Source of the DNA: Lama guanicoe
Lineage: Eukaryota
Assembly (NCBI GenBank): GCA_013239625.1
Contig: MU053557.1
Coordinates: forward strand, 5,963,842-6,027,841
Reading direction: 5' to 3'
Length of the DNA: 64,000 nucleotides
Each line of letters starts with the position of its first letter. The stretch's first letter is position 1. The position numbers were made by a program, and so were the translations under genes. Of the stretch, positions 5,407 through 64,000 are shown piece after piece. Under the pieces are notes generated by a model, which saw nothing but the letters and a program-made list of their open reading frames with translations, was not told where the DNA came from and searched no databases.

Positions 5407-5589
5407 ATGGACGCCGTCAGCCAGGTCCCCATGGAAGCCGTGCTCCCCAAGCACATCCTGGACATCTGGGTCATTGTCCTCATCATCCTGGCCACCATTG
5501 TCATCATGACCTCCTTGTTGCTGTGCCCGGCCACTGCGGTCATCATCTATCGCATGCGGACTCATCCCGTCCTCAATGGCGCTGTCTGA
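5407..5589 (+). CDS. SMIM3: Small integral membrane protein 3 (NID67), complete 60-aa CDS in one exon
   Basis: [63 protein letters not shown] matches SMIM3 as I recall it and has one hydrophobic helix. A pyrimidine tract and CAG acceptor end at 5395, and the ATG has a good Kozak context (agcATGG). Confidence 0.96.
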
Positions 5590-15668: not shown

Positions 15669-15669
15669 T

Positions 15670-39775: not shown

Positions 39776-41233
39776 AGGGAAGCTAAGCTGCTCAGAGCGA
39801 TGAGCAAGTGAACTGCAATAGGCCTGGGGCAGGGAGGGTGGGGGAGTTCAAGTCTGAGGTCTGAGCCAGCCTGGGGCCAGTCAGGCTGTCCCACAATGTT
39901 GTGCAGGTTGCTCACCCCACAAGGGCACCTGGCGGGCGGATAAGGGTAAGAGTCGACAGTCCAGGCTGCATTGCTTTCACCAAGCTGTTCAGTCATGCTG
40001 GAGCTGGCCTGCCTCAGCCAAGGGGGAAAGGGCCCTCGTCTACTCGCCAAGCTGTGTGCCCGAGGACCACGATGTGTGGGTTTACCAGGTGCTGTGCTTG
40101 TAGTTGCTAGGGAAACAGACCCTCATGAGGTTGTTAAGGAAATAGGACAAGAGGTAAAACGTCTTTCCAGCTGTCTTGACAAGACAGAGCCTTAAGCAAT
40201 GAACCTGTGTTACTACATTACATGCTTCAAATGGCTCAAGCCTGCAAAGACCTTCGAGCTGACCAGGTGAGTCCAGGCACTTCAGTCCCTCCCTTTAAGA
40301 CTACACTTCAATGAAAAAAAAAGGCAAAGAATTTATAGTAGTCTGAAAAAAAGTGTAGAAAATTCTTACGGATAATTGGGAAGATCAGAAATGCAAAGAA
40401 AACAGAAAACAAGTATCTATGGACGTAAAAAGAACTCTAATTAATTACATTTTATGTATTTTTTCAAATTAATTTACTTCATAATATTTGGATATTTATA
40501 AATCTTAATTTCATGGAAGAATATTTCAGAAAATATTTCAGAAAATATGAAATACTTTTAGAGATTCATAATTCATTTTACCATTTAATATCTCATAATT
40601 TTTAAGTAAAAATTTTAAACTTTATTTAATCAAGTATTTCTCCAAATCTCCCCTAATTAACATCTAGGGAATGTGTTCTTCAAGAGAACATTTGAGAATG
40701 TTTAAATTACCTCTAAATTATCCCCTTATTCAAAAACTGGTTATTTCTGTACTTTTGCCTTCTGTCTAATAAACTTATTTTGATCGTTTGCTTTTCTTCT
40801 GCCGCAGTGTACATAGTGGCGTCCCACACTTCACTGCTGGACATCTCATCTGCACCATCATGGGAGCCTGGTTACTCGGGGCAGTAGAGCTGAGGGAAAG
40901 GCACTCATATCATTCCTAACTGAAGCCAAACTAAGGGAGGCTGAAGGATTAGGGCCCATGTGGGAATCTACTGTGTTGGGCAAATAACATCTTTTCTACA
41001 GCAGAAAGACAGAATTCAGTACCAAGATAAAAACCAAGATTCCCAACTGAAATAGTACTACCAAAAAATGACCCTTCATATTCCTGCTTTCCAAGCCTTC
41101 AGTCTTTTTCACATGCACATCATTTAACTCTTTTAGAGAACCATTTTACTCTTCCAGGGCACCATCTTACTCCGCTAGGTCCCAGTAATGGAAAATTCAA
41201 ATGACAGTCAGCACATTGCCCCAACCCACTTAC

Positions 41234-41325
41234 TTTTAGATCGTCCTTGCACTGTGATGAAGAAAACAGCCACAGGAATGCAGACCACAGTTAAAATAAT
41301 ACTCCAAATTATCTGTATAGTATTT
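41234..41325 (-). pseudogene. Butyrophilin-like unit B, transmembrane exon
   Basis: AG acceptor and GTAAGT donor flank a frame reading NTIQIIWSIILTVVCIPVAVFFITVQGRSK, directly downstream of a BTN IgC exon. Confidence 0.7.
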
Positions 41326-42052
41326 CTGTCACAGAAGGAAAATACAGACATCAATCAGGGTAAGTGGCAATGTCTGTCAGTATGTACTCCGTTTCTCAAA
41401 AAAGCCAGATATCTAGTTCATGCTGACCTTAATGCATCTTACCATTTCTCTGTGTCTTTTTTAAAAATTATTTAAGTTCTTCTCTACTATAGCCCCTGTC
41501 TGTAACAGAGGGGGTGGGCTTGTCCTAATTTGATCACTACACACATGGCTACACCATTTTTATTTAAATTGACTCGTAAAATAATCCAAAACACTTTCCT
41601 GGTGTCCTACAGACAAAACAATCATTCCAACGATTTTAATATAATTTAACTGTTTACTGTGTCATTGCATACATATTATGAATAAAAGAAGCCCTTATGT
41701 AAGGATAAAGGACAGCTGCGCCTTCACTGTGCTTCCAGCCAACTTACTGTCACCAATGATTATATTCATTATTTACAAATCAGACTCTGCTAAGAAACCT
41801 AAGCTCAAGAAAGAATATTGTGAATTTTGAATTTCATATCAAACCTTACTTGGCAAAGATTTGCAGGCAACTCTAGTCCAAGTAGGAGCCTTTCAACAGA
41901 ATAATTCAATTTGGTACTTGAAAGTTGCCTAAAAAGGACAGTGCAGGGACTCAGAATTATTTTCCTTGCTATTAAAAATTCAACAATACACAAGAAACGC
42001 AGCTTTTGAAACACTTCTCAAGGCAATGAGGTGTAATAATGCAGAAACTAAC

Positions 42053-42318
42053 CTTCCAACAGAAATAGTTGTTTCCTTCTTGTGGTTGAGCCTGGGGTTG
42101 AGGACCAACGAGGGCAGAGTTACCAGGACTGAAGACTCAGTGGAGAACAGGCTGTTTCCACCTGCTCTGATGTTTTCAGAGCGTGGCTTTAAATTCTGTC
42201 CTTTGGGATCTCGCCAGGTTGCCTCAGGCTCTAAGTACCAGCCGGCAGCCTGACACACCAGATGCACAACTCTGGCATCACTGTTCTTGATGAGAAAGTG
42301 TGGGGAACCTTCCTAATC
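42053..42318 (-). pseudogene. Butyrophilin-like unit B, IgC exon (copy 1)
   Basis: SPHFLIK...HLVCQAAGWYLEPEATWRDPKG...LFSTESSVLV...LNPRLNHKKETTISV matches the BTN IgC pattern (CxxxGWYPxPxxxWRD...GLF...NP.L.QEKE). The canonical acceptor gives a frameshift/stop, and the second Cys is deleted. Confidence 0.85.
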
Positions 42319-43149
42319 CTGCGAAACGTGAAGGAGACAAGGAGCTCAGTTAAGAAATCAATATCTAAAAATTGTTTGGATCCTAGGTTTTAGTATATTT
42401 AACCAAATAGAATGATTGTCCATCTTTTGTGTAACTTGGGTAGAAAAAAGGTTCTGCGAATGATTTCCTCAGAGTGAGTGATTAACACTAAGATATCAAA
42501 GGCAGCAGAAAAAGACAAGAACAAGAAATCTTGAAGGAATGAGATATTAACAAATAGACAAGAAAAGAAGGTAGTAATAAGGAGTCGAGTGTTAGGATTT
42601 ATAGTAATCTCAGAAGCTTGCTGAAACAGTTCTGATCAAGTCATTACACACCACAAATGTTGAACTGTCAAAGCAGATTCACAGCAATCACAAGCCATAC
42701 CTAACACTAAACTTAGCTATTAGTAAAAGATAGAAAAAGCAAGGACAGAGATGGCAACATCCACCTCTGAAACGGTCCAAGATCATATGATGTAATTCTC
42801 AATAAAGTCATTTTCCCCTCCTGGGATGTATTTTTGTTTTACATTAAGAGATGGGAGCTAACAAGGTGGGTAACACGTGTGATTTAAAAGAGTCTGAGGA
42901 AGCCACTTTAAATTCTTAGTTTTTATATTACATCAAACACAGAGGTAGGGAACCTATATGACTTAAGTTTCACTCTCCAGCTGGGCAGTACAAACCATAA
43001 ATTCCAGTTTTATATACAATAACCAATAAAGACCCAAGCAGCCAGAGGTGCTGTTAACTCTTTCCTTCCCAGGTATAAATGGGTGGATCAGTGCTGTAGC
43101 TTTCCTTTTTGGGGGAATGTGCATGAGCTGCACTCCGTGGAATGGCAGG

Positions 43150-43420
43150 GAATTGAATCTGCATGTGGAAGATAATTATCTACTCCCCAGACACACTGCT
43201 GTACATTGTGGATCCTGGCCTCTCTCAGGACTCCTGATGGAAGACATTGACATATTTCTGAGCATCCATGAAATGGACCTTGCGCTCCAAGGAAAGTGTC
43301 TCTGGCTTTCTACTCTCTTAACTTTCTCCTGGGCTCAGAATTATTCAGTTTAACACTTCTTTTTATACATTTTCCAAGTCTCCAACTCTGATCCACACTG
43401 AGACCCTCTAGACCATATAA
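43150..43420 (-). pseudogene. Degenerate BTN IgV-like exon remnant (repeated at 44815-45085)
   Basis: Minus strand reads ARIHNVQ then SGE*IIIF, resembling the IgV motif LRIHNV...DxGEYxCxF. It lies upstream of the IgC exon. Boundaries are not recoverable. Confidence 0.4.
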
Positions 43421-43717
43421 TGTCAAGCAAGGAGCAGGGCTACAGGCATCAGGAAGGAGTGTGAAAGAAGGAATGAATACACTGGAAACAGTAAGCTGGT
43501 CCTTGAGATGCTCTTGGAAATGTAGTGGGGCTGCCCACTAGTCAGCGCCCAATGTTTTGAGAGACTACAAGGTAATTTCTAGATTTCAGCACAATCTTTT
43601 TTTAATTATTGAGTTATAGTCAGTTTAAAATTGCTATTAAAAATTCAACAATACACAAGAAATGCAGCTTTTGAAACACTTCTCAAAGCAGTGAGGTGTA
43701 ATAATGCAGAAACTAAC

Positions 43718-43983
43718 CTGCCAAAAGAAATAGTTGTTTCCTTCTTGTGGTTGAGCCTGGGGTTGAGGACCAACGAGGGCAGAGTTACCAGGACTGAAGA
43801 CTCAGTGGAGAACAGGCTGTTTCCACCTGCTCTGATGTTTTCAGAGCGTGGCTTTAAATTCTGTCCTTTGGGATCTCGCCAGGTTGCCTCAGGCTCTAAG
43901 TACCAGCCGGCAGCCTGACACACCAGATGCACAACTCTGGCATCACTGTTCTTGATGAGAAAGTGTGGGGAACCTTCCTAATC
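43718..43983 (-). pseudogene. Butyrophilin-like unit B, IgC exon (copy 2)
   Basis: Duplicate of 42053-42318 at offset 1665. Confidence 0.85.
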
Positions 43984-45261
43984 CTGCGAAACGTGAAGGA
44001 GACAAGGAGCTCAGTTAAGAAATCAATATCTAAAAATTGTTTGGATCCTAGGTTTTAGTATATTTAACCAAATAGAATGATTGTCCATCTTTTGTGTAAC
44101 TTGGGTAGAAAAAAGGTTCTGCGAATGATTTCCTCAGAGTGAGTGATTAACACTAAGATATCAAAGGCAGCAGAAAAAGACAAGAACAAGAAATCTTGAA
44201 GGAATGAGATATTAACAAATAGACAAGAAAAGAAGGTAGTAATAAGGAGTCGAGTGTTAGGATTTATAGTAATCTCAGAAGCTTGCTGAAACAGTTCTGA
44301 TCAAGTCATTACACACCACAAATGTTGAACTGTCAAAGCAGATTCACAGCAATCACAAGCCATACCTAACACTAAACTTAGCTATTAGTAAAAGATAGAA
44401 AAAGCAAGGACAGAGATGGCAACATCCACCTCTGAAACGGTCCAAGATCATATGATGTAATTCTCAATAAAGTCATTTTCCCCTCCTGGGATGTATTTTT
44501 GTTTTACATTAAGAGATGAGAGCTAACAAGGTGGGTAACACGTGTGATTTAAAAGAGTCTGAGGAAGCCACTTTAAATTCTTAGTTTTTATATTACATCA
44601 AACACAGAGGTAGGGAACCTATATGACTTAAGTTTCACTCTCCAGCTGGGCAGTACAAACCATAAATTCCAGTTTTATATACAATAACCAATAAAGACCC
44701 AAGCAGCCAGAGGTGCTGTTAACTCTTTCCTTCCCAGGTATAAATGGGTGGATCAGTGCTGTAGCTTTCCTTTTTGGGGGAATGTGCATGAGCTGCACTC
44801 CGTGGAATGGCAGGGAATTGAATCTGCATGTGGAAGATAATTATCTACTCCCCAGACACACTGCTGTACATTGTGGATCCTGGCCTCTCTCAGGACTCCT
44901 GATGGAAGACATTGACATATTTCTGAGCATCCATGAAATGGACCTTGTGCTCCAAGGAAAGTGTCTCTGGCTTTCTACTCTCTTAACTTTCTCCTGGGCT
45001 CAGAATTATTCAGTTTAACCCTTCTTTTTATACATTTTCCAAGTCTCCAACTCTGATCCACACTGAGACCCTCTAGACCATATAATGTCAAGCAAGGAGC
45101 AGGACTACAGGCATCAGGAAGGAGTGTGAAAGAAGGAATGAATACACTGGAAACAGTAAGCTGGTCCTTGAGATGCTCTTGGAAATGTAGTGGGGCTGCC
45201 CACTAGTCAGCGCCCAATGTTTTGAGAGACTACAAGGTAATTTCTAGATTTCAGCACAATC

Positions 45262-45696
45262 TTTTTTTAATTATTGAGTTATAGTCAGTTTAAAATGTGT
45301 CAATTTTCAGTGTGGAACACAATTTTTCAGTTTTATAGGAACATACAAATGATCATTAGGCACATGAAAAAATGCTCAATATACTAATTATCAGAGAAAT
45401 GCAAATCAAAACTACAATGAGGTATCACCTCACACCAGTCCGAATGGCCATCATTCAAAAGTCCACAAATAACAAATGCTGGAGAGGCTGTGGAGAAAGG
45501 GAACCCTCCTACACTGCTGGTGGGAATGCAGTTTGGTGCAGCCACTGTGGAAAACAGTATGGCGATTCCTCAAAAGACTAGGAACAGATTTACCATATGA
45601 CCCAGGAATCCTGCTCCTGGGCATATATCCAGAAGGAACCCTACTTCAAAAAGACACCTGCACCCCAATGTTCATAGCAGCACTGTTTACAATAGT
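45262..45696. mobile_element. 5'-inverted (twin-primed) L1
   Basis: Poly(T) plus antisense 3' end (45262-45332) joined to a sense ORF2 end (45340-45696). Degenerate TSD tcagcacaatcttt / tgaacacaaccttt. Confidence 0.7.
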
Positions 45697-46051
45697 GAAC
45701 ACAACCTTTAAAGAACACAACACAGAAAAGCACCATTTATGGTTGATATATTTGGTGAAATGAGGGAATAATGCTGTATTCTATGTCTGGAGTGGTATTT
45801 TACAAACTAAGACAAGCACCTAAGAGAAAACAAATTGACCACTATACTGAGCTACTATTGAAATCCAGATGCTAGTACCAAATTTGAGCTTTACATTATA
45901 AACATAGAAATTCTTGGGGGAGGCTAGACTTTGATATGACTTTCTGGGCTGGAGGTTCAGGGCACTGTTTATCATAAATGTCAAAGTGATTGCTGCTGAT
46001 ATACCAAGGGTAGATGATGATGATAATGATCAGCATTTATTGTGCACTTAC

Positions 46052-46402
46052 TGTATTAATTTGTGTCCCCTCAAAATGCTTATGGTGAAAACAAGCCCCA
46101 ATATAATGGTATTTAGAGGTGGGGCTGTTGGGAGGTGATGAGGTCATAAAGGTGGAATCCTCGTGAATGGAATCAGAGCCCTTATAAAAGATACCCCAGA
46201 GAGCTCCCTCACCCTGTCTGCCGTATGTGGACGCAGTGAGAAGACCGCCATCTATGAACCAGGAAGAGGGCTCTCACCAGATAGTGAATCTTCCAGTCTG
46301 TTGATCTTAGACTTTCCAGCCTCTAGAACTATGAGGATGAATTTGTTTTTAAGCCAGCCAGTCTATGGTATTTTTGTTATAGCAGCCCGGATGGATTAAC
46401 AC
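46052..46402 (+). mobile_element. MLT1A/MST-like MaLR LTR
   Basis: Same family motifs as 26084-26448. Confidence 0.8.
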
Positions 46403-47759
46403 AGCTACAATGTGACAAACATGTTCTAAGCCGTAGGGGCAGAGCACGTGTCGCCAGGAACAGTAAGGAGGCTAGAACGGCTGGAGCACTGGGAACAAAA
46501 GTAGGTAAATCATGGCTGCATTCCTGTTACTTTCCCTTCAAATAATTCAAGTCACTGTTACTATTCCTTGAAGTAAAGCTGAAATACAACTGTAGCACAT
46601 GCTCTGTCCTCTTGCCTGGACTTTTATACAATTTAAATATTTTCACAAGATGTCTGTGGACCTGCTATAACAGGTTTTTCCTTTATAAAGTGAGACTTGA
46701 ACTCAACTCAAGGACTTTTAAAATTCAGTTCCTTCTGTCTCTATCACTTTTCTCCATGAAGGGCTCGCTCCTTCACGATCTTCAATATATGAAAATCATA
46801 ATGGCAAATATTTTTATGATGAGAGTCCAGATAACAAGAAATCCTTGTATTTGTGGTATGTGCTCCCATTAGAATAGATATGTGCTTAAAGCACCAGAGT
46901 AACCAATATGCTGCCAGTTTGAAAGTTTTATTTTAGTCCCTTTTACTTGTCAGACATTTTAAAACAGATTTCTCTGCTAATGCTATGAGAAAGGTGAGGA
47001 CTTTATAACTTATAGTCATTTATAGTTGACTTAACTGAGGAAGAGAAAGGCCAAGAGACTTACTCAGTGTCTTCTTGGCAAAGAGTAGAAGAACAGGGGT
47101 TCTGACCCAGAAAATCTGCTGCTGGAACCCTAGCTCTTGGCCTCCAGACATAACTAAACCGACAACCTGTATAAGAAAACAATCAAGAAACCAATCAAAC
47201 AAAACCAACAAACAAAAACACTGAGAACTGAGAGGGAGACTGAGATGGCAGGACAGCATAGATAAAAAGAAAAAAAAATCATCTCAACATTGAAAAACTA
47301 GTGTCTCCAAGAAGTTTTGTGATACAAATAATAGAAGAGGGATGCTGATTTTAATAAACTGTGGTGGTGTGGTGAAATCCACACTTACGCTATTTTAAAT
47401 ATTTTCAAAATAGATGACTTAAGTCATGAACATATGAGTTATGGCTTACCAGCAACAACAGTGACTTACATCTGTGTTTACATAAAGTGTTCCAAAACAC
47501 TATTTTCTCAGTATCTTTTCTTTGCAAGATACCACAGGCTATTCAAAAAGCCATGAAAAACTGGCATTGCTATCATTGCTCTCTCAGTGTGACTGGTAGG
47601 AAATAGAGTCTCGGCTCGCTTGAGTAAATTTTTATCTACATATTAGCAACACTAAGAGATCTCAAGATCCAGTAATCAGCACAAGAAGGCTCCAGTCAGC
47701 CCGGGTCATGATATATATCAGTGTGACTTTCTGGTTGTCCAAGACTGAAGGCAGTTGCA

Positions 47760-48223
47760 AGCGAAGGCATCGCTGAGGATCTTAGGGGAAAAAACATGGA
47801 AAAGAGATTGGAGGAAGGTATAAAAAAGCTATAAATATGGGTCCACTCTGTCACATAATAGACTAGAGCCTCACCATAGTGACAGGACTATCTGAAGTAA
47901 AGGAGAGAATGCTGAGAAAGAACTTCAAATGGGTTGTTCCTGAGGCTCAGTGAACAGGAAATGGTAGTCAGCTAAGTATATACATCCTTTCTTTCGCAGT
48001 GACCTGAGTCCAAATGAAGGTCCAATGGACTTCCTTGGGACCCTCACCTCCCAGCAGTGATCACCATCAGAAAACATCTCTCCTCCCAACATAGACATCA
48101 GAGTTTCAAAGTGCTTTCTGTTCTCTGAAGAATGATGCTTTTTGAAACTGGAGAAAACCAGTTTCCTCTCATTAAACATAATAAAGTAGGGATTAGCTAT
48201 GTTTGGATACAAAGTCACATACA
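47760..48223 (-). pseudogene. Butyrophilin-like unit A, B30.2 (PRY-SPRY) exon
   Basis: YVTLYPNIANPYFIM...ENRKHFETLMSMLGGEMFSDGDHCWEVRV...SLRKKG and HYGEALVYYVTEWTHIYSF match VTLDPxTAxPxL...NPERFD...LG...FxSGxHYWEV and DYExGxVSFYNVTDxSHIYTF. Stop at 47925-47927. AA stands where the acceptor AG is expected. Confidence 0.85.
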
Positions 48224-48689
48224 TTTTGACAAGGAAGGTCATTTAATGGACTTTGGCTTCCATCCATGAAAAGGTAACGGCTACACAAGAAGTTCTCCCA
48301 TCATAAATGAGTAAATAATAAAATATGAAACAGGTAATACAGAATTGTGATCCCTGAGGAAGGGAAACAAATAAAGAGACCTGAAATCACCCCTGCTTCC
48401 TACCTAGTGATTTCCAGTCACCTGCACAAAAAGTGGGAATCGATAGATACCCTGCCACCATTCTCACTGAATTGTGTCCAAAACTCTTTACAGGAATTAA
48501 ACAAAATCTGTCACCCAACAATGAAAAAATCACATCCTATGTCCAATTAAAATAAGCAGACATGGGAAGAAGTACAAAAATGTGACTGGTAACCAGGAGA
48601 AACAAACACAGGAGAAAAACCAACAATGGAGTGAGCAGACAAGGGCTTTAAAACACTGCTCATAAACATTATAAACACAGCCTGTGGGG

Positions 48690-50890
48690 CCCAGCAGCAC
48701 ACTCCCCTCCAGTCACCAGGGCTATATGTCCTAGGGGTGTCCCCTAGGTGGGCTGTGTGGGCGCTTCTGTTTTGGTGGGGTAGACGACTCTGGGCATGCA
48801 GGTAGGTGGGGCTGGCCCCGAGCCTGGTTGGCTGTCAGGCTCTGCCTTGTGCGGAGGCGGTCAGCCCACTGGTGAGTGCGGCCAGATGTTGGCACGGTTG
48901 GCTGTGTGAACCAGGGGGTCCGGTGGCTGATGCAGCCCACGGGTGGGCAGGGCTGGGCCCCAGGATGGATGACTGCTTGGTTGGGGGAATCTCAGGACTG
49001 CTGCCACGGCCTGGTATGCAGGTAAGCCGTTGGTCCTAAGAGGCTAGAGGGAAGACTGCAAAATGGCACTTGCCAGCACAACTGTCCTCGTGGTAGAACG
49101 AGCTTGCCAAAACGGCTTCCGCCAGAGTCTATGCCCCCAGGCGGAGTTCCAGTTGCCTCCTACCTCTCTGGGAAGCTCTTTAAGATCTGTAAGTAGGCCT
49201 GACCCAAGGTCCTTTCAGATTAATCCCTCTGCACTGGGCCTTGGAGAACGTACAGTTTTGCATGAGCCCTTTAAGAGTGGAGTCCCTGTTTCCTAAAGCC
49301 CTCTGGCTTTCCCACACACGAGCCTTCAGCTCCAGAATATCAGTTTGGTTCTTTTTTAAAGTTTCAATCTCTTCGGTAAAGAACTCTTCATTAACTTTAT
49401 TCCTGAGCTTATTGAACTGCCTTTCTGAGTTTTATTGTAGCTTGTTGAGTTTTTTAATGACACTTATTTTGAATCTTCCAACTGTTAGATCACAGTATTT
49501 CCTGAATTTAAGCTTGATTTCTGTACATGTGTCATCTCCTTTTTGAGGTACAGTGTTCCTGTGGTTCTTCATGGTGCTTGATGACTTGTTCCTCTGCCAG
49601 TGCACTGAAGTAGGCAGCAACATTAGAACTTGATTCTAATGATTTCAGTAATTTAGAAATTAGAGGCCTTTCTTTTGATTTCCAGTGGGTGGCGCTAGAA
49701 CTAGCACAAGTTTCTGGTTTCCTTGACTTGAGCTGCTTCTGATTATATTTGAGTCTGCTCTTTCACACTCCACTGCCCCTGTCAGAGGTGGTGTTGGGCT
49801 CAGTTTGCTAATATTTTGTTCAGGATTTTTAAATCTATATTCATCAGTGATACTGGCCTGTAATTTTCTTTTCTGGTGCTCTGTCTAGTTTTGGTATCTG
49901 AGGGATGGTGGCTTCATGGAATGACTTAGGGAGTGCCATTCCATGAAGCCACCATCACTTAAGAGACTCCTCTTAAGTCTTTTGGAAGAGTCTGAGAAGG
50001 CTAGGTATAAGTTCTTTGTATGTTTGGTAGAATTTCCCAGGGAAGCAATCCAGTTCTGGATTTGTTTGCAGGATTTTTTTTTTTAATGGATTCCACTTCA
50101 CTTCCAATGATTGGTATGTTCAAATTCTGTTTCTTCTTGTTGATTCAGTTTTGGCAGATTGTATGTTTCTAGGAATTTGTCCATTTCTTCTAGGTTGTCC
50201 ATTTTGTTGACATATAACTGTTCATAACATTTTCTTATAGTTCTTTTTTGTGTTTCTGCACCATCAGTTATTTCTCCTCTTTATTTCTTATTTTGTTTAT
50301 TTGGGTCTTGTCTCTTTTCTTCTTAATGAGCCTTGCCAGAGGTTTGCTGATTTTATTTATCCTTTCAAAAAACCAGCTCTTGGTTTTATTAATTTTTTTC
50401 CATTTTTTAAAATCTCTATTTTATTTCCTCTCTGATCCTTATCATTTCCTTCCTTCTGCTGACTTTAGGGGCTTTTTTGTTGTTGTTGTTGCTGTTCTTT
50501 TTCTAATTCCTTTAGGTGGTAGTTTAGGCTGTTTATCTGGGATTTTTTCTTGTTTTGTTTAGGAAGGCTTGTATTGCTACAAGCTTCCCTCATAGGACTG
50601 CCTTTGCTGTGTTCCACAGATTTTGTATGGTTGTGTTTTCACTGTCACTTGTCTTGAGTCATTTTTTATTTCCTCTTTGATTTAATTGTTGACCCACTGT
50701 TTTATTTTGAAAGCATGTTGCTTAGTCTCCATACAATTGTTTTTTCACTTGTTTCCCGTTCTGTGGCTGACTTCTAGTCTCATGCCATTGTGGTCAGAAA
50801 AGACCCTTGAAGTCATTTCCATCTTCTTAAATTTGTTGAGGCTTGTTTTGTGTCCTAGTGTGTGGTCTATCTTAGAGAATGTTCTATTTC
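48690..50890 (-). mobile_element. Rearranged antisense L1 fragments (5' region, ORF1, ORF2)
   Basis: Antisense ORF2 motifs (ctatattcatcagtgatactggcctgtaattttc, tttcaaaaaaccagctctt) and an ORF1-like peptide (KISVIKKLNKLQ). Confidence 0.75.
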
Positions 50891-51893
50891 ACTTTTTCAA
50901 TCTAAAATATTAGAATATTTATATTTAGGAGTAAAAATACTTGTACTAAGTAAAATAATTCCATATAGAACAAATAAAATTGGAGGAAAAATTAGCCATG
51001 TGGATTACTGGGAACTCTACATAAGCCTTAAAAATTTCAAAGAATGAATTCTCCTATAACAATACACATACAAATACAAATTAGAGGATGAAAGTCACTG
51101 GGAAGTCAGTGGAGGTTAGAAGTTTAGTTGCATTCACCTCCATCTTCCTTATTGACTCATTACTAATTAAATTCTAATTGACATTCGATCCTGAAACTTA
51201 ACCTGAGCCATTTTCCTGGGTTGGGCAGATGAGTCTGAGTAAAGGAAGCAAAGTCACCTGCCAGACTTATTAGGAGCACTGATGATTCACGATGGGAGAG
51301 AACCACACTGTGCAATATTGCACCTACCTGAGCCAGGGAAGCACCAGAGGAAGGCAAGGAGTGCAGGCAGGCCAGAACCCAGCACAGGGGTGGCAGGAGT
51401 GGGGTCGGGGTGGGGGGCATTGCCCTCAGCCGCCAGAGGCTCCAGGTCAGAGTCAGCACCATCAGAATCAGCCAATGTGCAGAGAGAAATTTTCAGGACA
51501 CAAGGGCCTTGAGGAAGAAGGAAAATGATAAGAAATATAGTAAGATACATGTGATTATGTGGACATACCCTATTTTTATACACACTGACAAATTAGAATT
51601 GTATGCTCACAGAGGTGAGTATTTATAAGACACCAATTTAACCAATTTTTAATTGGAGTAAATTAAATGCTAATTGTGCCTAAATTTTAACTACTGTTTG
51701 AAAGATTCTTACATCAAAGGGTCGATTAAGAGAGCAGAAGGAACACTTAATTTTCACCAAATATTTATATCATTCTAGTACAACACAATTATACCACTGT
51801 GACTATTTCTCTTTTTTCTTGAAAATTCTCTAGTTTAAAAAAGAAGCTACTTACTTTCATTATGCAAAACTAATGATCAAAAACATCTCATGA

Positions 51894-53566
51894 GAACTAC
51901 AAAACACTGATTAAGGAAATTAAAGATGATTTAAAGAAATGGAAACATACCCCATGCTCTTGAGTTGGAAGAATTAACACTGTTAAAATGGCCATACTAC
52001 CCAAAGCAATCCACAGATTTCATGCAATCTGTATCAAATTTCCCATAACATTTTTCACAGAACTGGAATAACCCTAAAATTTATATTTAATCACAAAAGA
52101 CTCAAAATTGCTAAAACAATACTAAAGAAAAAGAACAAGGCTGGAGAAATAACCCTCCCAGATTTCAGACAGTATTACAGAGCTAAAGTAATCAAAATAG
52201 TGTGGTACTGGCACAAAAATAGACATAAGGATCAGTGGAACAGAACAGAGTCTAGAAATAAACCCATGACTTAAACATAAGACAAGGCATTATAAACCTC
52301 CTAGGAGAAAACATAGGTAAAACATTCTCTGATATAAATCTTAGCAATGTTCTTCTAGGGCAGTCTACCCAGACAATGGAAATAAAAGCAAAAATAAACA
52401 AATGGGACCTAATTAAACTATAAGCTTTTACATAGCAAAGGAAACTATAAACAACAAAAAAAGACAACCTAAGGAATGGAAATAATATTTGCAAATTATG
52501 TGACTGACAAGGGCTTAATTTCCAGAATATACAAACAGCTCATACAACTTAATAACAGAAAAATGAACAACCCAATCCAAAAATGGGCAGAAGACGTAAA
52601 TAAGCAATTCTCCAATGAAGACGTACAAATGATCAATAGGCACAAGAAAAAACGCTCAATATTGCTAATTATCAGAGAAATGCAAGTCAAAACTGCAATG
52701 AAGTATCACCTCACACCAGTCATCACTAAAAAGTCCACAGACGATAAGTGCTGGAGAGGGTGTGGAGAAAAGGGAACCCTCCTCTCACTATAGTGGGAAG
52801 GTAATTTGGTGCAGCCATTATTGAAAATAGTATGGAGATTCCTTAAAAAACTGAAAGTAGACTTACCATATAAGCCAGCAATCCCACTCCTGGGCATATA
52901 TCTGGAGGAAGTTCTAATTTGAAATGATACATGTACCCTATATGTTCGTAGCAGCACTATTTACAATAGCCAAGACATGGAAACAACCTAAATGTCCATC
53001 GACGGATGACCAGGTAAAGAAGCTGTGATATATGTATCTTGAGATTTTATATATGTATGTGTATATATGTATATGTATATGTGTATATGTATATGTATAT
53101 ATATAAAATAATGTCATTTGCAGCAACATGGATAGACCTGGAGATTGTCATTCTAAGTGAATAAGCCAGAAAGAGAAAGAAAAATACCATATGATATCAC
53201 TTATATGCGGTATTTAAGAAAGTGACACAAATGAACTTATTTACAAAACAGAAACAGATTCACAGACATAGAGACCAAACTTACGGTTACCAGGGGGAAA
53301 GAGGGTAGGAAGGGATAAATTGGTAGTTCAAGATTTGCAGATACTAATTACTATATATAAAATAAACAAAAAGTTTCTACTGTACAGGACAGGGAACTAT
53401 ATTCAATATCTTGTAGAAATCTACAACGAAAAAGAATATGAAAAGGAACATATGTATGTACATGTATGACTAAAACATTATGCTGTACACCAAGAATTGA
53501 CACAACATTTAAAACTGATTATACTTCAATTTTTAAAAAAAAGGCAAAAAGAAAAGAAAAGAAAAT
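51894..53566 (+). mobile_element. Young 5'-truncated L1 with internal deletion and (TA/TG)n microsatellite
   Basis: ORF2 3' part, UTR and A-tail. TSD core catctcatga at 51884-51893 and 53567-53576. Confidence 0.9.
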
Positions 53567-54174
53567 CATCTCATGAAAGCATGTGATTCCTCTATATCTA
53601 AAGCTATCCCACTCTCAGTTCAGTTTATGAAGTTGTCATCATGAATTAAGCAGAAAGCTTTATAAGTCATAGAAGTTAGTTTCCCTGGTCTCTAGACAGT
53701 AGGATTACTTAAAATATGCCTAAAATTCTTCATGCTACCTCGGCTCTTCCAGTTCAATCTATTTTGTTCTGTAGGCTAGGAAGTTCTCTGGCACCAATAA
53801 CATTTACCAAAATCTGTCAGAGTAGCAGAGTTATATATTTAACATCTGATTGACTGAACTATCTAGTTCATATGCTTCTGGTCACTTTTTCTTTCTTTTT
53901 TACTGCGTCATTCTGCTTTCTGGTGTTTCTCTGGAAATACTTTGAAGCAGTTACTGCACTCTCTGCTGTCTTTGCTGTATAGAGACTTATTGGACTTTTA
54001 TCCACTGACTCAATAACTGAGATCACGAAGTAAGCAGGGCTTTCTTATTCACTCTACTTGAAAAACAAAAGCAGTTTTCAAAGACACAGTCACATTTTTT
54101 TTGGCCAGCTTTAGCTTGCTTTTATAAAATACCCCATGACTCACTGGCTTTCTTAGGAAAAACATATTGCTTAT

Positions 54175-54267
54175 TTCTGTGATCTTTTCCTGCAAAAACT
54201 AAAACTTTGTCATATAACATAATCAGAACATGCAGGCACAACCATCACTGCAGCTATTGCAGTGGCT
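54175..54267 (-). pseudogene. Butyrophilin-like unit A, degenerate transmembrane exon
   Basis: Aligns by eye with the unit B TM exon (cttatttctgtgatcttttcctgca vs cttacttttagatcgtccttgca; cagaacatgcaggcacaa vs caggaatgcagaccacag). Reads WLCLHVLIML with stops upstream. Donor is ATAAG instead of GTAAG. Confidence 0.5.
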
Positions 54268-54402
54268 CTGAGATGGTACAGAAACAAAACACCTCCACTC
54301 CTCCCCCTCTGCAGGTGGCAGAATGTCATCTACTTTTATCACTTCTGTGGCTTTCAATTCTCAGAGCAAGATCTTTGCTCAAATCTGTTTTCCCACAGTC
54401 TA

Positions 54403-55005
54403 ACTGCACATCATATATCAAATAAGGGGTTAATACCCAAAATGTATAAAGAACTCATACAACTCAACAACAAAAAGTAAACAACCCTATTAAAAAAATG
54501 AGCAGAGGAGCTGAATAGACATTTTCCAAAGAAGACTTTCAGATAGCCAACAGGCACAAGAAAAGATGCTCAACATCACTAATCAACAGAGAAATGCAGA
54601 TAAAAAACACAATAGGATATCACTTCATACCTGTCAGAATGGCTACTGTTAAAAAGACTGCAAATAACAAAAGTTGGTAAGGATGTGGTACACTCTTGGA
54701 ATGTAAATTGGTACAGCCATTATGGAAAACAGTACAGAGGTTCCTCAAAAAACTAAAAATAGAACTACCATATGATCCAGTAATTCCATTCCAGGGCATA
54801 TATTTGAAGACAATAAAAACACTAATTTGAAAAGCTACATGTACCCCAATGTTCACAGCAGCATTATTTACCATAGTCAAGATATGAAAACAACCTAAAT
54901 GTCCATCAATAGATGAATGGATAAAAAAAAAATGTGTGTATATATGCACACACATACTGTGGAACTCGGGCATAAAAAGAATGAAATTTTGTCATTTGCA
55001 ACAAC
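54403..55005 (+). mobile_element. L1 ORF2-end fragment
   Basis: Typical L1 motifs (aaagaactcatacaactcaac, ccatatgatccagtaattcc). Confidence 0.85.
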
Positions 55006-55112
55006 AATGTATTGGGGCTCTTACTTGAAGCCCTAGAAAAAAGAGCAGAATCATAAGCAATAAAGGACTTACAGGGACAATGAAGAAAGTGCGAACTCTT
55101 TTCTTAAAAAAC

Positions 55113-55200
55113 TTTTTTGTTTTCCCTTAATGGAGGGACTGAGGATTGAACCCAGGACCTCGTGCATGCCAAGCAAACTGTCTACCACTGAGCTATGCCC
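55113..55200 (-). mobile_element. tRNA-derived SINE, Vic-1-like (camelid)
   Basis: Minus strand reads gggcatagctcagtggtaga...gcatgcacgaggtcctgggttcaatcctcagt with A/B boxes and an A-rich tail. Confidence 0.75.
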
Positions 55201-57129
55201 TATTACACAAACAGCAGTCCCAGGTTCTAAGTAAGAAATCCAGCAGTTTTGGCTCATTGTTAAAAAAAAACTCAAATCCCACACTACTACACAGTGGCCC
55301 CAGGTTCTGAAAATAAATGAGACCCCCAGCAGGACTGGCTCATTGCTGACATGGCTCAGCCTGCCTTATTGCACAGACAGTGGTTCTGGGTTCTAGAGGT
55401 AAGAATCTCAATGTCTACTGTACTGCGCATGATACAGAGGTGGACAACATGAGGTCCCAAGCTGTGGAGGAGAGTAGCAGGGAGCCCCTCACACAGGCAG
55501 CAGAGCATGGGGAAGGGCTGCAGGTTGCTGGTAGGAGACCTAAAAAAGGAGACTAATCTTTAGATCCCATCAGAAGAGCCAGAACATGAGACCAAGCTGA
55601 AGTTGTTTTCAATTTAGTTTCCCTTTGTTTTAAATACATTTTCATAATGAATTACTATCTTCGTTTTGAATTTATGTGTTCCACACCATAGTGACCTCAC
55701 GGCGAATTCTGCGACATCAACCAAACTGTGGCCTTAGACCCTAGCCTCCAGTCAAGCAGAGTTGCACCTCACACCCATGCTCAGTGGAGCTGACAGAAGC
55801 GCTCCGCCTTGCCTTAACCACTGCCTGCTTTTGGTTCCTCAAGGTTATGCTCAAAGTCACCTTCTGTGGGCTGGGAAGCACCACCACCTCCTTCTCTTGC
55901 TAGTCTTCCCTTTGAAGGCCCCTGAACATAGATACTAAGTCTGGTCAAAGAAGGACAGGACTCACGTTTTCTCAGGATACTCATGGGAGGCAGGAGGGGA
56001 ACATCAATTTTTGTCGGCTATCAGCCAGACTTAGCAATTCCACTCCTGAGTATACACCCAAGAGAAACTCTAATACACATGTACCAGTGACAACCATAAA
56101 AAGTAATACACTACAAGAGCAAAATATTGGAAATAGCCCCAAATGTCCATCAACTGGGGAACTGATAAATGATGGAATATGTGGAATATATGGGATACTA
56201 CACAGCAGCGACAGCTCGACACATCGGCATGGATCAATTTCATATACAGTAGGGTAATAACAGTAAGTCACAGGACATGTATTCTTTAGCTCAACATATA
56301 AAAGTTAATAATAATTCCAAACAATAAATTATTTAGGGTATATACGTGGCAAAATTAGGAAACAGCGAGTATCCATAGGGTGTAAAGGAGGGAGACGTTA
56401 CCAGGGAAGTACACACAAGAGCCTCAAGGTGTTGGCAATTGTTCTGTTTCATAAACAAGGTCGGTGGGTACACATATTTATTTTCTAATATTTTCAACAT
56501 TTCTGAAATCTGGATGGTCTTGAGATGTAGCTGTCAATATCATGAATATATCATAACCAGTTTCTTTTAAAACAGTTTACTTTTTATGTATTCATAAGGG
56601 TGATAAATGTCAAAGTCTGAAAGATTTTTTAAAATAAATATAAAAAATTCCAAGTGACAAGAAATCATTGTGTCAGTTTAAGTGGTATAATTTTCTTAGT
56701 AGTACATATAGTATACATTATGCTTGATGACATTATTTTTAATGGAATACTAAATTTTTAATCATATACATTGCATGTATAGTTTTACAAGTATGGTATA
56801 TTTTACACTAAAAATGTATTGTCTTTCATCATTTCTCCATATTGCACAGGGGCAAGAAAAGCCACAAATACCGCTAATTTAGTACTATGTAAGTGGAAAA
56901 TACAGGAAATTATGGCAGAGACAGACTGCTGGTTGTCTACTCAACACCCATTCTTGCTTTCCCTCCTAACAGACAATTTTACTGGGAGCAGGACCCTCAT
57001 AGCTTTGGCTCCTAAGAGTCTTCATGCAATCAGAGAAGTAAGCTAGAAGAAAGCTAGCTCGGTTTATTGACACTAATGTTGAATGGCTCTTAAATTTTTT
57101 TCTGAATCTTCTAATTTTGTTACCATACT

Positions 57130-59990
57130 AAAATTTTTTCTTGAATTGACATACATCAAAATTGATCTTTTTGGTGTACAATTTTATGAGTTTTGACATA
57201 CGTATAGATTAATGGAGCCACCACCACAATCAGAATACAGAACTGTTCTATCACTCAAAAAAGTTCTCTTGTAAAGTCCCTTTTTAGTCAAACTTCCTGC
57301 CTGTCCTAACCCCTGGTAACCACTGTTATGTCCTCTGCTGCTCTAGTTTTATCCTTAGCAGCTGTCATATGGATGAAATCACACAGTATGTAAGCGTTGG
57401 AGACTGGTTCTTTCACAGCATAATACGTTTAACATACCCTTCCCTGTGTGTCAATGACTCACTCCTTTCACTAGAGTAGTCCCACATGTTGTTTATCTCT
57501 TTCCTAGTTGAAGGACATTGGGGTTGTTTCCGATCTTTTACTATTATAAATAAAGCTGCTATGAATAAGAGCACACAGGTTGTTATTATGAACATACATT
57601 TTCATGGGAATGATGGGCAATATGATATGTTATAAGACCACCAAACTGTTTTCTAGAGAGGCACAATAATTTTGCATTCCCAAATCAGTGATGTGTAAGA
57701 GTACCACTTGCTTGTCATTCCTACCAGCAGCTGGAATTGTCATTTTTCCCCCTTTCTATCTAATAAGTGTACAGTGATAGCACATGTGGTTTTCATTTTG
57801 TTTTCCTTAATGGCTAAAAATAATGATCATATTTTCGTGTACTTATTTGGCATCTGTATACCTTCCGGATGAAGTGTATAAGTCTCTTGCCCATTTAAAA
57901 ATTTTGTTGTTTCCTTACTGTTGAATTCTAAGAGTTTTTTATTTATTACAGATGAAAGTTCTTTGTCTGCCATGCAATTTCCAAGCATTATATCCCAATC
58001 TGTAGCTTATATTTCAATTTTATTAGCAATGTATTTTGCAGAGCAAAGTTTTCAATATTAATAAAGTCTGTTGATTGTCTTTTCCCTTGTGAGAAGTCAA
58101 GACTTCCTTGGTTCCTTGTGTTGTGTAATTCTGAACTGTTTCCTGGACATTTTGAATAGTTTAAAATATAAATTCATAGAGATTATAAATTTATGTTAAT
58201 ATTTATGTAATATATAAGGTTTAAATTTTTGACATCAATAACATAAAGGAGGGAATAGAGATTTAAAGAAGCAGAGTTTTTGTATATGACTGAAGTTAAG
58301 TTGGAATCAATTCAAAATGGATTCAAGATAATTTTAGGATGTTATATGTAATCCCCTGGTAAACACAAAAATATATCTAAAAATATATACAAAAGAAAAT
58401 GAGGAAGGAATCAAAATGTGTCAATATAAAAAATTAACTAAACACAAAGAAAGAAAGGTGGTAATGGAGGAAATGAAGGACCAAAAACAAAAACAAAAAC
58501 AAAACAAAACCCTGTAAGACACAGAGAAAACAAATATCAAAATGGTAGGAGTAAGTCCTGCCTTATCAGTAATTACTAACCTAGAAATGGATTAAACTCC
58601 CCAGTCAAAAGGTAGAGATTGGTACAATGGCTTAAAAAAATGATCCAACTATATGCTGTCCACAAGAGACTCACTTTAGGCGAAGGACACCATAGTTTGT
58701 AAGCAGAAGGATGGGGAAAAGATATTTAATGCAAACAGTAATTAAAAGAGAATAAGGGTGGCTATTACTAACATCAGACAAAATAGACTTTAACCCAAAA
58801 ACTGTTACATGAGACAAAGAAGAACATTACATATTGATAAAAGGGTCAATTCACTAGATATAATAACTAAATATATATATGCACCAAATATCACATCTCC
58901 AAACTACATGAAGCAAACATCGTTAGAATTGGCAAGAGAAGGAGACAGATCTACAATAATAGTAGACTTCAATATCCCACTTTCAATAATGTGTAATACA
59001 ACCAGACAGAATATCAATAAGGAAATAGAGGACTTGAACAACACTATGGACCAAATGGGCCTAAAAGACACATACACTTCTCTCCACAACAAAATATACA
59101 TTTTTCTCAACTGCACATGGAACACTCTTCAGGATAGACCATATGTTAGACCACAAAACAACTGCTAATAAATTTTGAAAGACTGGAATTACACAAAGTA
59201 GCTTTCAAATCACAGTGGAAAGAAACTAAAAATTAGTATCAAAAGAAAAACTGAAAAACTCACAAATTTGTGAAAATTAAACAACATACTCTTAAACAAC
59301 CAATGGGTCAAAGAAGAAATTACAAGGAGATGGAGGCCGGTGGATCCCGTACTGTGGAGGGCGAGGTGACCTCGGCACCGCTGCAACCATGGGCCGCGAG
59401 TTTGGGCACCTGATGCGGATGTGGCATGTGATCACCTATAGCTTGTCGCCCTTCGAGCAGCGCACCGTCCCGAACTACTTCAGCAAGGGCATCCCCAATG
59501 TGCTATGCCGCACTCGGGTGTGCATCCTTCACGTCACACAGCCATCTGTAGCATTTTATCTTGTCTACACGTGGGGAATCCAAGAGTTTGAGAGATCCAA
59601 AAGGAAGAATCCAGCTACCTATGAAAATGACAAATGAGCAGCTCATCTGGACAATGGTTCCTTGTCTCTGAAAGACCCTTCTCTGGGAGAGGAGTCTACA
59701 TTGTAGGGTCCTGAAGACACAATAAACTTACTGTGAGCTGCAAACAAACAAATAAACAAATTACAAGAGAAATTAGAAAATATCTTCAAATAAAAACAAA
59801 ACACAGTATGCTAAAACTTATGAGAAGTAGTCAAAGCAGTGCAATAAAGTGATAATTTACAGCTGTAAACTCTTACCTTTAAAAATAAGAAAGATTTCAA
59901 CAACCGAACTTTACACCATAAAGAATTAGAAAAAGAAGAACAACCTAAACCCAAAACTAACAAAGAGGAGGAAGTAATATAGATTAGGGA
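57130..59990. mobile_element. L1 fragments: antisense 3' end (57130-58080) and sense ORF2 endonuclease region (58190-59990)
   Basis: EN-like translation (IYAPN...YMKQ...DFNIPLSIM...QNINKEIEDLNNT), interrupted by the UQCRQ retrocopy. Confidence 0.85.
59327..59757 (+). pseudogene. UQCRQ: Processed UQCRQ retrocopy; uninterrupted 82-codon ORF at 59389-59637
   Basis: MGREFGHL...YSLSPFEQR...SKGIPNVL...YTWG...[13 protein letters not shown], intronless. AATAAA at 59721, A-rich tail, TSD aaattacaag at 59317-59326 and 59758-59767. Confidence 0.95.
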
Positions 59991-60115
59991 AGGTTGCCTC
60001 AAAATTACAGTGCAGGAACTCAGTATCATTTCCCTTTCAATTAGAAACTCAACAATATGTACTCAGTCTTTAAGTATTTCTCCAGACAATGAGATACAGT
60101 TATAGACAAACTAAC

Positions 60116-60372
60116 CTGAAACAGAAACAGTTGTTTCCTTTTCTGGTTGAGCCTGGAAATGAGGTTGGAACCAGGCACAATCTTTTTGAGTTCAGTTACC
60201 AGGACTGAAAGCTCAATGGAGAACAGGCCTCTCTCATTTACTCTGTTATTTTCAGAGTGTGGCTTTAAACTATGTCTTTGGAGGTCTCTCCAGCTTGCTT
60301 CAGGCTCTGGGTACCATCCTGCATCTTTACATACCAGGTGGACCACTCTGGCATCACTGTTCTTGATGAGAA
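60116..60372 (-). pseudogene. Butyrophilin-like unit A, IgC exon
   Basis: LIKNSDARVVHLVCKDAGWYPEPEASWRDLQ...NERGLFSIELSVLVT. Frameshift before ETTVSVS, donor GTTAG retained, acceptor AG lost. Confidence 0.85.
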
Positions 60373-61424
60373 CAAGCGGGATGAGATGAGAAGGGAACAA
60401 GCGGTTCAATTAAGAAATCAACAAATGGTTGATTCTAGTTTGAGTATTTTGAATATGATGAACCAAATGGAAGGATAGTCCATCTCCTGCATAACTTAGG
60501 TAGAAAACAATGAAAGTTTCATCAAAATAAGTGGTTATCCTAGGGAATCAAAGTAGCAGAAAAAGGCAAGAACAAGAAATTTTTAAGAACTGAGATAACT
60601 GAAAATATTGAAGAAAGGAAGATAATAATGAGAAGCTGAGTCTAAGAATTTATAGTAATTATAATTCATATCAAGTGGATGCTATATTTCCCTACCATTA
60701 AGGAGATCTAACATATTGATGAACAGATGAACATTATACATAGAACTATTAATTTCCCTCCAAAATTTGTTTCATCAACTGTTATCCCAGACTCAGTGAA
60801 TGTCAATTCCATCACTCCAGTTAGATTGGGCTAAAAATCATTAAGCAACTAGAAGCCTTCTGTTTCTCTCATGTTCATTTCAGGAAATTCTATTTACTCA
60901 GTACTCAAAATCTGAAGAGTACATGTGCATACTATTCTCAATGTCCAAGTGGTGTACAAACAGCCTGGGAACAATACAGTTAAAACTCTTGGTATTTGTT
61001 GGAATCGGTATAACTAGAAAGAGTTATCGCTTAATATTTCCAGAAAACATCTCCACATTACCATATTTCAAGCTTCCTTTCCATTAGCTAGAGCTTAGAA
61101 AACATTTGTGGATTCTGAATCCATGTTTGAACAACTCTGAGAATTCAGCTGCACTGTAGTGACTCTAATAATTATAATGAACACTAAACTTTGAGAATTA
61201 TATGTCTAAATGATAATCTCAATTTCATAATAACTAGAAAACAAAATTACTATATATTATGATTAATTTGGTTCTTGTGTATGAACTAGAAATTTTATCA
61301 TGGATCCCATGATACCTGGCTTAATTTTCCATGGAAATCCAACTTATGTGTCAAACGTCATGTGACATCATTCAGATTTTGAATTTAAAACCTAAGAGGA
61401 TTCAGCATTAGAAAGAATATTTGG

Positions 61425-62642
61425 ACTCCTGGGCTTGTACCCAGAAGGAAATCTACTTCAGGATGACACCTGCACCCCAATGTTCATAGCAGCACTATTT
61501 ACAATAGCCAAAACATGGAAACAACCTTGATGTCCATCAACAGGTGACTGGATAAAGAAGATGTGGTATATTTATACAATGGAATACTACTCAGCCATAA
61601 AAACCGACAACATAATGCCATTTGCAGCAACATGGATGCTCCTAGAGAATGTCATTCTAAGTGAAGTAAGCCAGAAAGAGAAAGAAAAATACCATATGAG
61701 ATCACTCATATGTGGAATCTAAAAAACAAAAACAAACAAACAAACAAAAACAAAGCATAAATACAGGACAGAAATAGACTCATGGACAGAGAATACAGAC
61801 TTGTGGTTACCGGGGCGGGGGTGGGTAGAGGGTGGGAAGGGATAGACTGGGATTTCAAAATTGTAGAATAGATAAACAAGATTACACTGTATAGCACAGA
61901 GAAATATACACAAAATGTTATGATAAATCACAGAGAAAAAAATGTGACAATGAGTGTGTATATGTCCATGAATGACTGAAAAATTGTGCTGAACACTGGA
62001 ATTTGACACAACACTGTAAAATGATTATGAATCAATAAAAAATGTAAAAAAAAAAAAGAAAAAGATCTTCTCCCCCAAATCATAAATGTTTGCTTTCTGA
62101 GAATTTAAACTGCAATATGTATCACTTGGTGAAACTCTCTATACATACCTGAAAATTTGGAAACAGATTTTCTTAACCTGTTTAAAAAATCTTCCATGTG
62201 AAGAGTTCCAATGGTTTTGAACCTGCTTATGAAAAATATGAAAAGTAACTTGATTCATTTTGCAGGATTTTATTGATTGAAATCATGGAAGATCAAAATT
62301 TACCCTTCAATTTTTAACAAAAATGTTCGCCTAATTAGTAGATTGAATGGACTTACTTTAATTAACAAAGTTAATGATGTACTTTTTTGCAGTGAAATCT
62401 AAATATTTTTATGTGGTATATTTTTCAGCTAAAAAAACTATTAAATCCAAGTGTTTGAATAAAATGAACTTAAGACCTGTCAAATTGCTGTATTACAAAG
62501 TATTAAAACAATATTTTCAAGAATAATAAAATATTTACATTGTTCTTTCTAAGAATATTCATCTCACTAAAGTAATTATTATTAGTGAGAGCAAAATGTT
62601 TTACATGCTCAATAAATAAAATAGCTGTTCACAAAAAAAAAA
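61425..62642 (+). mobile_element. 5'-truncated L1 (61425-62063) with 3'-transduced flank (62064-62632) and second A-tail
   Basis: 15-bp TSD agaaagaatatttgg (61410-61424) / agaaggaatatttgg (62643-62657) encloses both parts. Confidence 0.8.
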
Positions 62643-64000
62643 AGAAGGAATATTTGGGACAAAGCAAATTATTCAATTAGTATGAATCATCTCTATCTGT
62701 ATATAGTATACATATTTACAGTGAGATTATAAACATTTTAGAGAAATGCATTTAAATTTTTTATTCTATATAAATACTTTAAAAATAATATGAGGTCAAC
62801 ACATATCCAAAAAAATTAACCCAAATGTAGAAGAACAAGTTGTCAATTAGGTCATTTATATTGTTATTTAAATTTTTCTTGCCAGTCTTTATCCTCAAGC
62901 CTTAATAGTAAAATTACATTGTTACCATAATTTTTGAGAGCTTTGATATTTGTTTTTCAAGGCATCCAGCCCAGTATCTTAATCATGGCAATGACAGCGT
63001 ATGAACTTATCCGGACATTTCTCTACAGACTCTGTCACTTGAATCAGATGCCAAACAAATCCTCTCATGACCCCACTCCCTGGGATACGGCTGCCAACAG
63101 AACAACTGCCACCATACTCAGGCCAGCAGCAACAGGTCTGATCCATGGAGCTTTCTGGCCAGTTAAGGAGGGAGGAACCATGAACACATAGAAGTCATCA
63201 TACATATAAGTTAACTTGTCATTATTAGTGGGTGATTTAGTCTTTACACAGTTGCTGCTATCTTGTCATAGAACCCACCTCATTTCTCCCAATCTCAACT
63301 GATGCTCACTGACCCTTACATTGTCTTCTCTAAGCATCCAGGCCAAACTTTCCTCCAACAACCACCCTTTCAGCTATAGGCAATCCTAGGTCATGTTCTC
63401 TGCCCCTACAGAACATATGTGAACTAACACTTAATACACCGAAGAGCTGCAGCTACCTAAATCTCCATTTTCCCATGCACAGAATAAAGAAATTTTTTTA
63501 TTCAACTCATTCAGCAGATGTTTCTGTGACAGACATTGTTCTAAGCTTTCGGGACATTTCCAGGAAGAGTAATGAGGAGAGAGTGGCTGGAGCACTGGAG
63601 CAAACCCAGGGTAGTGATATTCCTGTTACTTTTCCTTCAAATAAAACAAATCACTGTTAGTGTTTCTTCAGATACAGCTGTGATACAACTGCAGTGCACT
63701 CTGGGCGTAATGTTAAATTTTAGGATTTTCTTAAAGGTATGTAATCTTATAAAAATGCATCAACATGTAAACTAAGTGGAAAATTTTAAAGCAAACTATA
63801 TTTGAACTACAAATAAAAATTTTAATTACAAAATAAAACCACTGAGTAAACACGATTGTGTGTAATATATTGCATCATCTTAGGTTCCATTGCAAAATGG
63901 AAATATGGGGACCCTTGTTCAAAAATCAAAAAAGGACTACTAAAGATACTAAAATAAAAAAATTTTACCTTTAAAATATTTTATTACTTATAAAATAGAG

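Follow-up and report, generated by a model that had tools for sequence, protein, structure and literature searches.

The question raised by this locus is whether the broken exons lying about 36 kb downstream of SMIM3 in the guanaco (Lama guanicoe) are the remains of butyrophilin genes and, if so, of which ones. The window, i.e., the whole stretch analysed, comprises 64,000 nucleotides of contig MU053557.1 (assembly GCA_013239625.1, positions 5,963,842 to 6,027,841 of the forward strand); the butyrophilin-like remnants are on its minus strand and form two related units, A and B. In our opinion, both units are probably non-processed pseudogenes, of exon-intron type, which arose by tandem duplication of one butyrophilin-like gene belonging to a branch distinct from BTN1, BTN2 and BTN3. 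The exon remnants stand in butyrophilin order, the introns are common to A and B, both units are found in a dolphin, and both are broken here. The branch is apparently undescribed; what is new is an additional locus of a known family.

The first line of evidence is provided by the IgC exons. A Pfam scan of 27 minus-strand frames covering positions 39401-64000 matched C2-set_3 (PF22705, the butyrophilin IgC family) at three places, which correspond to the IgC exons that a first-pass annotation, made from the letters alone, had assigned to unit A and, in two copies, to unit B. The unit A exon remnant (60116..60380, minus strand; E 8.5e-15, 55 bits vs. a cut-off of 27) is further supported by its alignment to unit B and ends at 60116, where a GT donor is kept. 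Copy 1 of the unit B exon (43718..43983, minus strand, 266 nt) and copy 2 (42053..42318, minus strand, E 2.9e-14) were matched by the same family, and the frame that holds both scores 106.7 bits. With a frameshift-aware profile built from 69 full-length proteins, nearly all of them BTN2, the three exons score 99-100.5, compared with at most 36.9 on reversed DNA, which served as the control. All PDB matches of the unit B IgC are butyrophilins (34 sequences, BTN3A3 being the best), and a joint profile of the A and B IgC gives flat scores (BTNL8, 35.3 bits; BTN1A1, 34.7; BTNL3, 32.8; BTN3A3, 32.5; CD276, 32). In the ESM Atlas the IgC falls to a generic BTN IgC cluster at 0.93; nothing usable was returned there for the dolphin IgC fragment described below.

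The second line of evidence is the B30.2 (PRY-SPRY) exon remnant (47700..48223, minus strand), presumed to be the last exon of unit A. It begins at 48223 and was recognized by a PRY match (E 2.7e-4, 21 bits, which is below the Pfam cut-off of 27.5) together with PDB matches, the best being TRIM21 (E 2.6e-7, 33.9 bits; BTN2A2, 25.6 bits); the TRIM21 match corresponds to the first half of the exon. The second half lies one frame off and has no match by Pfam or PDB search alone; it outscores 299 of 300 shuffles. The frameshift-aware profile scores 84.6 on the exon vs. 42.3 on reversed DNA. The B30.2 exon proposed for unit A at first pass is confirmed. Downstream of unit B, no B30.2 was found by profile.

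The transmembrane (TM) exon of unit B (41234..41325, minus strand, 92 nt), also noticed at first pass, is well preserved: its AG and GT are intact, its hydropathy reaches 2.82, and about 21 hydrophobic codons are followed by basic codons. One base is added where the unit B IgC ends and one is lost where this TM exon begins, with the effect that IgC copy 2 and the TM exon are in a common frame, with intact splice sites at 42053 and 41325; such compensating indels can be due to chance or can be the trace of a working stage. An orthologous fragment (P0175, see below) seems, as read by eye, to have the same extra base at the IgC end. The candidate TM exon of unit A (54175..54267, minus strand, 93 nt) is weak: AG is intact, the donor reads AT, and its likeness to the unit B TM exon is equalled by 43 of 1000 shuffles, a first comparison of the two having fallen below chance (30 vs. 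a null maximum of 50). An IgV exon of unit B may be represented by motifs, seen by eye and not significant, at 44853..45300 (minus strand; second copy 1,665 bp lower), 869 bases above the IgC. The best whole-domain IgV fit ends at 44850, adjoining a degenerate donor, with 16 and 49 of 100 shuffles scoring equally, and a typical IgV exon would be some 100 bases shorter than this span; the IgV reading is suggestive only. No IgV of unit A was found within the window; it may be lost or lie outside the window. As a side observation, a 21-nt AG-flanked stretch (53925-53905) and a second short stretch at about 51215, both on the minus strand, resemble butyrophilin heptad exons, by eye only and with no statistic attached.

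The third line of evidence is the relation between the units. A and B are 71% alike across 712 aligned bases, introns included, and their upstream introns are identical at 193 of 257 positions (Jukes-Cantor distance 0.30). With usual neutral rates this distance dates the A/B duplication to about 70-90 million years ago. Moreover, a stretch upstream of unit B (46411..46595, minus strand) is shared with unit A at 72% and occupies an equal position relative to each IgC; its unit A counterpart, located by sequence comparison, is at 63525..63694 (minus strand). This is probably a fragment of an old repeat duplicated together with the genes, the repeat nature being presumed. Within unit B, self-comparison reveals a two-copy tandem duplication at 41966..45296, with a period of 1,665 bp, 99.46% identity (9 mismatches) and a gap-free junction, which contains the IgV candidate and the IgC and makes the two unit B IgC copies one duplicated exon. 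Either the duplication is genuine and recent, or the assembly has joined the two haplotypes one after the other. An outside fragment agrees with copy 2 at 32 of 43 positions and with copy 1 at 30 of 43.

Lesions are found throughout. In unit A, the IgC acceptor is deleted by a 16-base gap, as seen in the alignment to unit B, the second Cys is replaced by Gly, and 1 base is lost near the exon end; the TM donor, as noted, reads AT; and in the B30.2 exon the acceptor reads AA, a frameshift occurs near 47960 and an in-frame stop near 47890. The claim that unit A is dead, with three lost splice sites, is therefore upheld. In the unit B IgC, an extra base just after the acceptor leads to a stop, and a 15-nt gap relative to A falls where the second Cys is expected, that Cys being absent; the exon end carries the extra base mentioned above. 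As judged from the sequence, the locus is expected to make no functional protein today, having neither an open frame, nor both Ig cysteines, nor full splice sites.

Orthologous remnants exist in other species. A HMMER scan with the first half of the B30.2 as query, exhaustive over 1.84 billion representatives, gave 61 matches (names were checked for 10 and domains for 30 of them), among which only two short fragments, P0002 (68%) and P0012 (45%, frameshifted), are close over most of the query. Both carry the window's wrong reading frame across the B30.2 break, with scores of 98 and 63 vs. at most 18 in other frames; the frameshift is therefore old and predates the split of the three lineages. 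A word search with the A and B IgC alignment yielded 4 orthologues among 58 candidates. Two of these are consecutive partial gene models of the dolphin Sousa chinensis (DBR06_SOUSAS810195 and 810196, the contig measuring 20,554,059 bases in each case): P0172 matches unit A (66 of 78 residues identical) and P0174 matches unit B (27 of 33). Since the dolphin has models matching both units, the A-B pair predates the split of this lineage from whales. A fifth IgC fragment, P0176, was found via the cluster of the dolphin protein. All seven orthologous fragments, five of them IgC, are damaged or cut short, the IgC mostly in different ways: the first Cys is missing from dolphin A, dolphin B spans no more than 34 residues, the second Cys is missing from P0173, and P0175 and P0176 contain frameshifts. 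The duplication would thus precede the camelid-whale split, the B30.2 frameshift would be early, and most IgC lesions would have arisen separately in each lineage.

Searches beyond these fragments yielded less. No full-length relative was found in three protein searches, the sole exhaustive one of which used the B30.2; a word search of longer proteins with the unit B IgC confirmed 0 of 49 candidates, which is weak evidence, and two scans of metagenome contigs confirmed none of 202 stretches and none of 339, respectively. In a word search of sequencing runs for positions 41000-48400, the stretch is at least partly present in 20 of 24 runs: 0.86-0.90 of the words occur in 14 runs filed under four organism labels (either guessed to be DNA or with no kind given), 0.06-0.32 in five RNA runs, and 0.34 in a further RNA run of doubtful status. 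As shares of words, these figures bear on neither expression nor the 1,665-bp duplication.

Phylogenetic analysis places the locus outside the BTN1, BTN2 and BTN3 subfamilies in both the IgC and the B30.2 tree. In the IgC tree (18 rows, seven of which are from the locus, with BTN1, BTN2, BTN3 and a fish outgroup), the seven locus rows group together (99/98), and the stem leading to this clade measures 1.16; a caution is that long branches come together at the fish outgroup. Among the locus rows, the four longer ones are 24-37% identical to BTN1/2/3, compared with 38-51% among BTN1/2/3 themselves. In the B30.2 tree, for which 20 of 25 intended rows were kept (five were lost on the anchor motif) and whose non-BTN rows were chosen by likeness to the query, the locus has a long stem, lies outside the BTN1/2/3 group (81/92) and is joined to no TRIM; mammalian TRIM rows, like BTNL, ERMAP and SKINT rows, are not part of this tree. 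The claim of a little-described butyrophilin relic thus holds insofar as the locus is decayed, butyrophilin-like and distinct from BTN1/2/3; the suggestion that it may be intact in other mammals is so far unsupported, all seven fragments being damaged or truncated.

By analogy with the BTN/BTNL proteins described in the available text of PMC11969061, the ancestor would have been a type I membrane protein of IgV-IgC-TM-coiled coil-B30.2 architecture. It may have formed dimers at the cell surface, with the Ig domains contacting a T-cell receptor and the B30.2 binding a cytoplasmic ligand, as is outlined for known members in the same text. Units A and B may have encoded the two chains of a heterodimer that had a single B30.2, comparable to BTN3A1 with BTN3A2/A3; this is a resemblance only. 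The role in gamma-delta T-cell biology invoked at first pass is knowledge of the BTN/BTNL family only. There, BTN/BTNL pairs select gamma-delta T-cell subsets, and the pairs kept by a species have been used to explain subset differences between mammals. With the family (BTN1A1, BTN2A, BTN3A, BTNL3/8/9) the locus shares the PF22705-type IgC and tandem duplicates and perhaps also a single TM exon, which is clear in unit B and weak in unit A, and a B30.2 as the last exon, which stands in order in unit A and is absent from unit B (PMC11969061, available text); it differs in the divergence of its IgC, in having no working frame and in its position on the side of SMIM3. The known butyrophilin pseudogenes, human BTN2A3, BTNL10 and SKINTL and mouse Btnl7, are likewise non-processed and of the same family, according to the available text of PMC11969061. 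Unlike them, this locus has no living relative that we could find, and its decay is far deeper. Those four have living orthologues or close paralogues.

Several observations weigh against our reading. It should be noted that CD276 scores about as well as butyrophilins on the IgC profile (32 vs. 35.3 bits), and that the B30.2 scores higher with TRIM21 and with non-mammalian B30.2 domains than with BTN1/2/3. The proposed link between the B30.2 and the unit A IgC rests on order and strand across 12 kb. In the unit A TM candidate, hydropathy does not exceed 1.68 and stops occur in all three frames; as proposed at first pass, this exon is not confirmed. The IgV remnants listed for unit B did not reach significance in any search, whether Pfam (0 Ig matches in 24 candidate frames), PDB (0 matches), tblastn, or local and whole-domain frameshift profiles. 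Status as a separate subfamily is likely, judging by trees built on BTN1/2/3 and without BTNL, ERMAP or SKINT rows. Finally, two comparisons indicate better preservation than pure decay predicts. Between A and B, the IgC core has a synonymous distance (dS) of 0.42 and a nonsynonymous distance (dN) of 0.19 (dN/dS 0.45, p 0.066), which argues for some selection after the A/B duplication. Between window unit A and P0176, 66 of 72 positions agree in the exon and 32 of 41 in translated intron (p 0.048, for two hand-picked segments from one species). These borderline hints suggest that the ectodomain may have stayed under selection after the B30.2 broke.

The last two comparisons also favour the likeliest alternative, namely that an ectodomain gene outlived its B30.2 and persists intact as IgV-IgC-TM, its B30.2 gone or shortened, in a mammalian lineage where it is not annotated or escaped the searches. 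The shared, old B30.2 break combined with mostly lineage-specific IgC lesions agrees with this, as does the in-frame junction of IgC copy 2 and the TM exon through two compensating indels, and the B30.2 used in the exhaustive search is just what such a survivor would lack. On the other side, none of the five IgC fragments is both complete and undamaged, no candidate was confirmed among the longer proteins, and word searches favour close fragments, so that apparent conservation is inflated. In addition, four unit A rows share an Asn two positions after the second Cys, where BTN1/2/3 have a hydrophobic residue. We regard such a survivor as unlikely. We are equally doubtful about the fuller history in which an undescribed butyrophilin pair with one B30.2 lost the B30.2 first, was then inactivated independently in camelids and in whales, and has remained intact in some mammal. 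If true, it would provide a new candidate pair of gamma-delta T-cell ligands.

A somewhat less probable alternative is that the units are moved, fast-decayed copies of a known subfamily (BTNL3/8/9, BTNL2, BTNL10 or SKINT). BTNL8 is the top PDB match of the joint IgC profile, decay lengthens branches, and the IgC tree, like that of the B30.2, contains no BTNL, ERMAP or SKINT rows. However, the margin of BTNL8 over BTN1A1, BTNL3 and BTN3A3 is below 3 bits, and with unit B alone BTN3A3 takes the lead. Moreover, the long IgC stem precedes the A/B split, and the branches after it are short. That the IgC units are instead B30.2-less B7/BTN-like genes, with the remnant of a separate TRIM pseudogene between them, seems very improbable: TRIM21 as the best match, the position outside BTN1/2/3 and the missing unit B B30.2 would fit, but no RING, B-box or TRIM coiled coil was matched in the 27 minus-strand frames (heavily decayed exons could escape), the long B30.2 branch joins no TRIM in a tree whose comparison rows resemble the query by choice, and order and strand fit one butyrophilin gene.

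The reading of A and B as pseudogenes of a separate butyrophilin-like branch adds a locus outside the listed butyrophilin clusters, lost from camelids and a dolphin; it provides a datable loss and tells annotators where to seek a living copy. Since a dead locus has no direct function, its interest is evolutionary. No publication was found that places a butyrophilin beside SMIM3, DCTN4, IRGM or ZNF300 or describes the locus, subscription journals and supplements being outside the search; the first-pass remark that no such gene is known beside SMIM3 agrees with this, and the human and mouse BTN gene lists in the available text of PMC11969061 omit the locus. BTNL3/8/9 are listed as human genes outside the major histocompatibility complex in the available text of PMC12841164, in which human is the only mammal surveyed.

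The neighbourhood is that of the IRG/IRGM region beside DCTN4-SMIM3 (human 5q33.1), a rearranged immune-gene region. IRGM is located 80 kb from DCTN4, and the IRG clusters of mouse chromosomes 11 and 18 both correspond to this interval, which is described as the ancestral IRG block (PMC1297648, available text). Butyrophilin is not mentioned in the available text of that paper, and no IRG domain was found among the 147 stop-free frames of the window scanned with Pfam, a subset of the frames listed together with three others. Pfam matches to Sec8_N, BES1_N, Phage_tail_APC and YPEB_N were below their own cut-offs and were taken as chance. The synteny anchor is the intact SMIM3 coding exon (5407..5589, plus strand; Pfam Smim3, E 1.2e-38, 60 of 60 positions), which clusters with named laurasiatherian SMIM3 proteins. 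A scaffold gap of 64 N (30837-30900) separates it from the butyrophilin-like cluster; the adjacency of the two therefore rests on a scaffold link.

Other elements of the window include a frameshifted retrocopy, devoid of introns, of an RNA-binding gene of the FET family (14062-15757, minus strand; RRM, E 1.1e-8; RanBP zinc finger, E 3.5e-9), which we take to be FUS from its QGSY-rich start and its tail. Between the unit A TM candidate and the B30.2, positions 48700-50900 (minus strand) hold LINE-1 fragments with a weak RVT_1 match (E 0.0087), the remainder of this stretch being presumed L1. One tRNA-type short interspersed element (SINE; 55125-55197, minus strand) is assumed to be camelid vic-1. 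According to the available text on SINEBase, vic-1 belongs to the simple SINEs and is found in camels (PMC3531059). Just downstream of unit B, positions 38000-40100 are rich in GC and CpG (41 CpG in 2 kb, GC 0.53) and have no Pfam match; this stretch may have a regulatory role or be an ancient CpG island.

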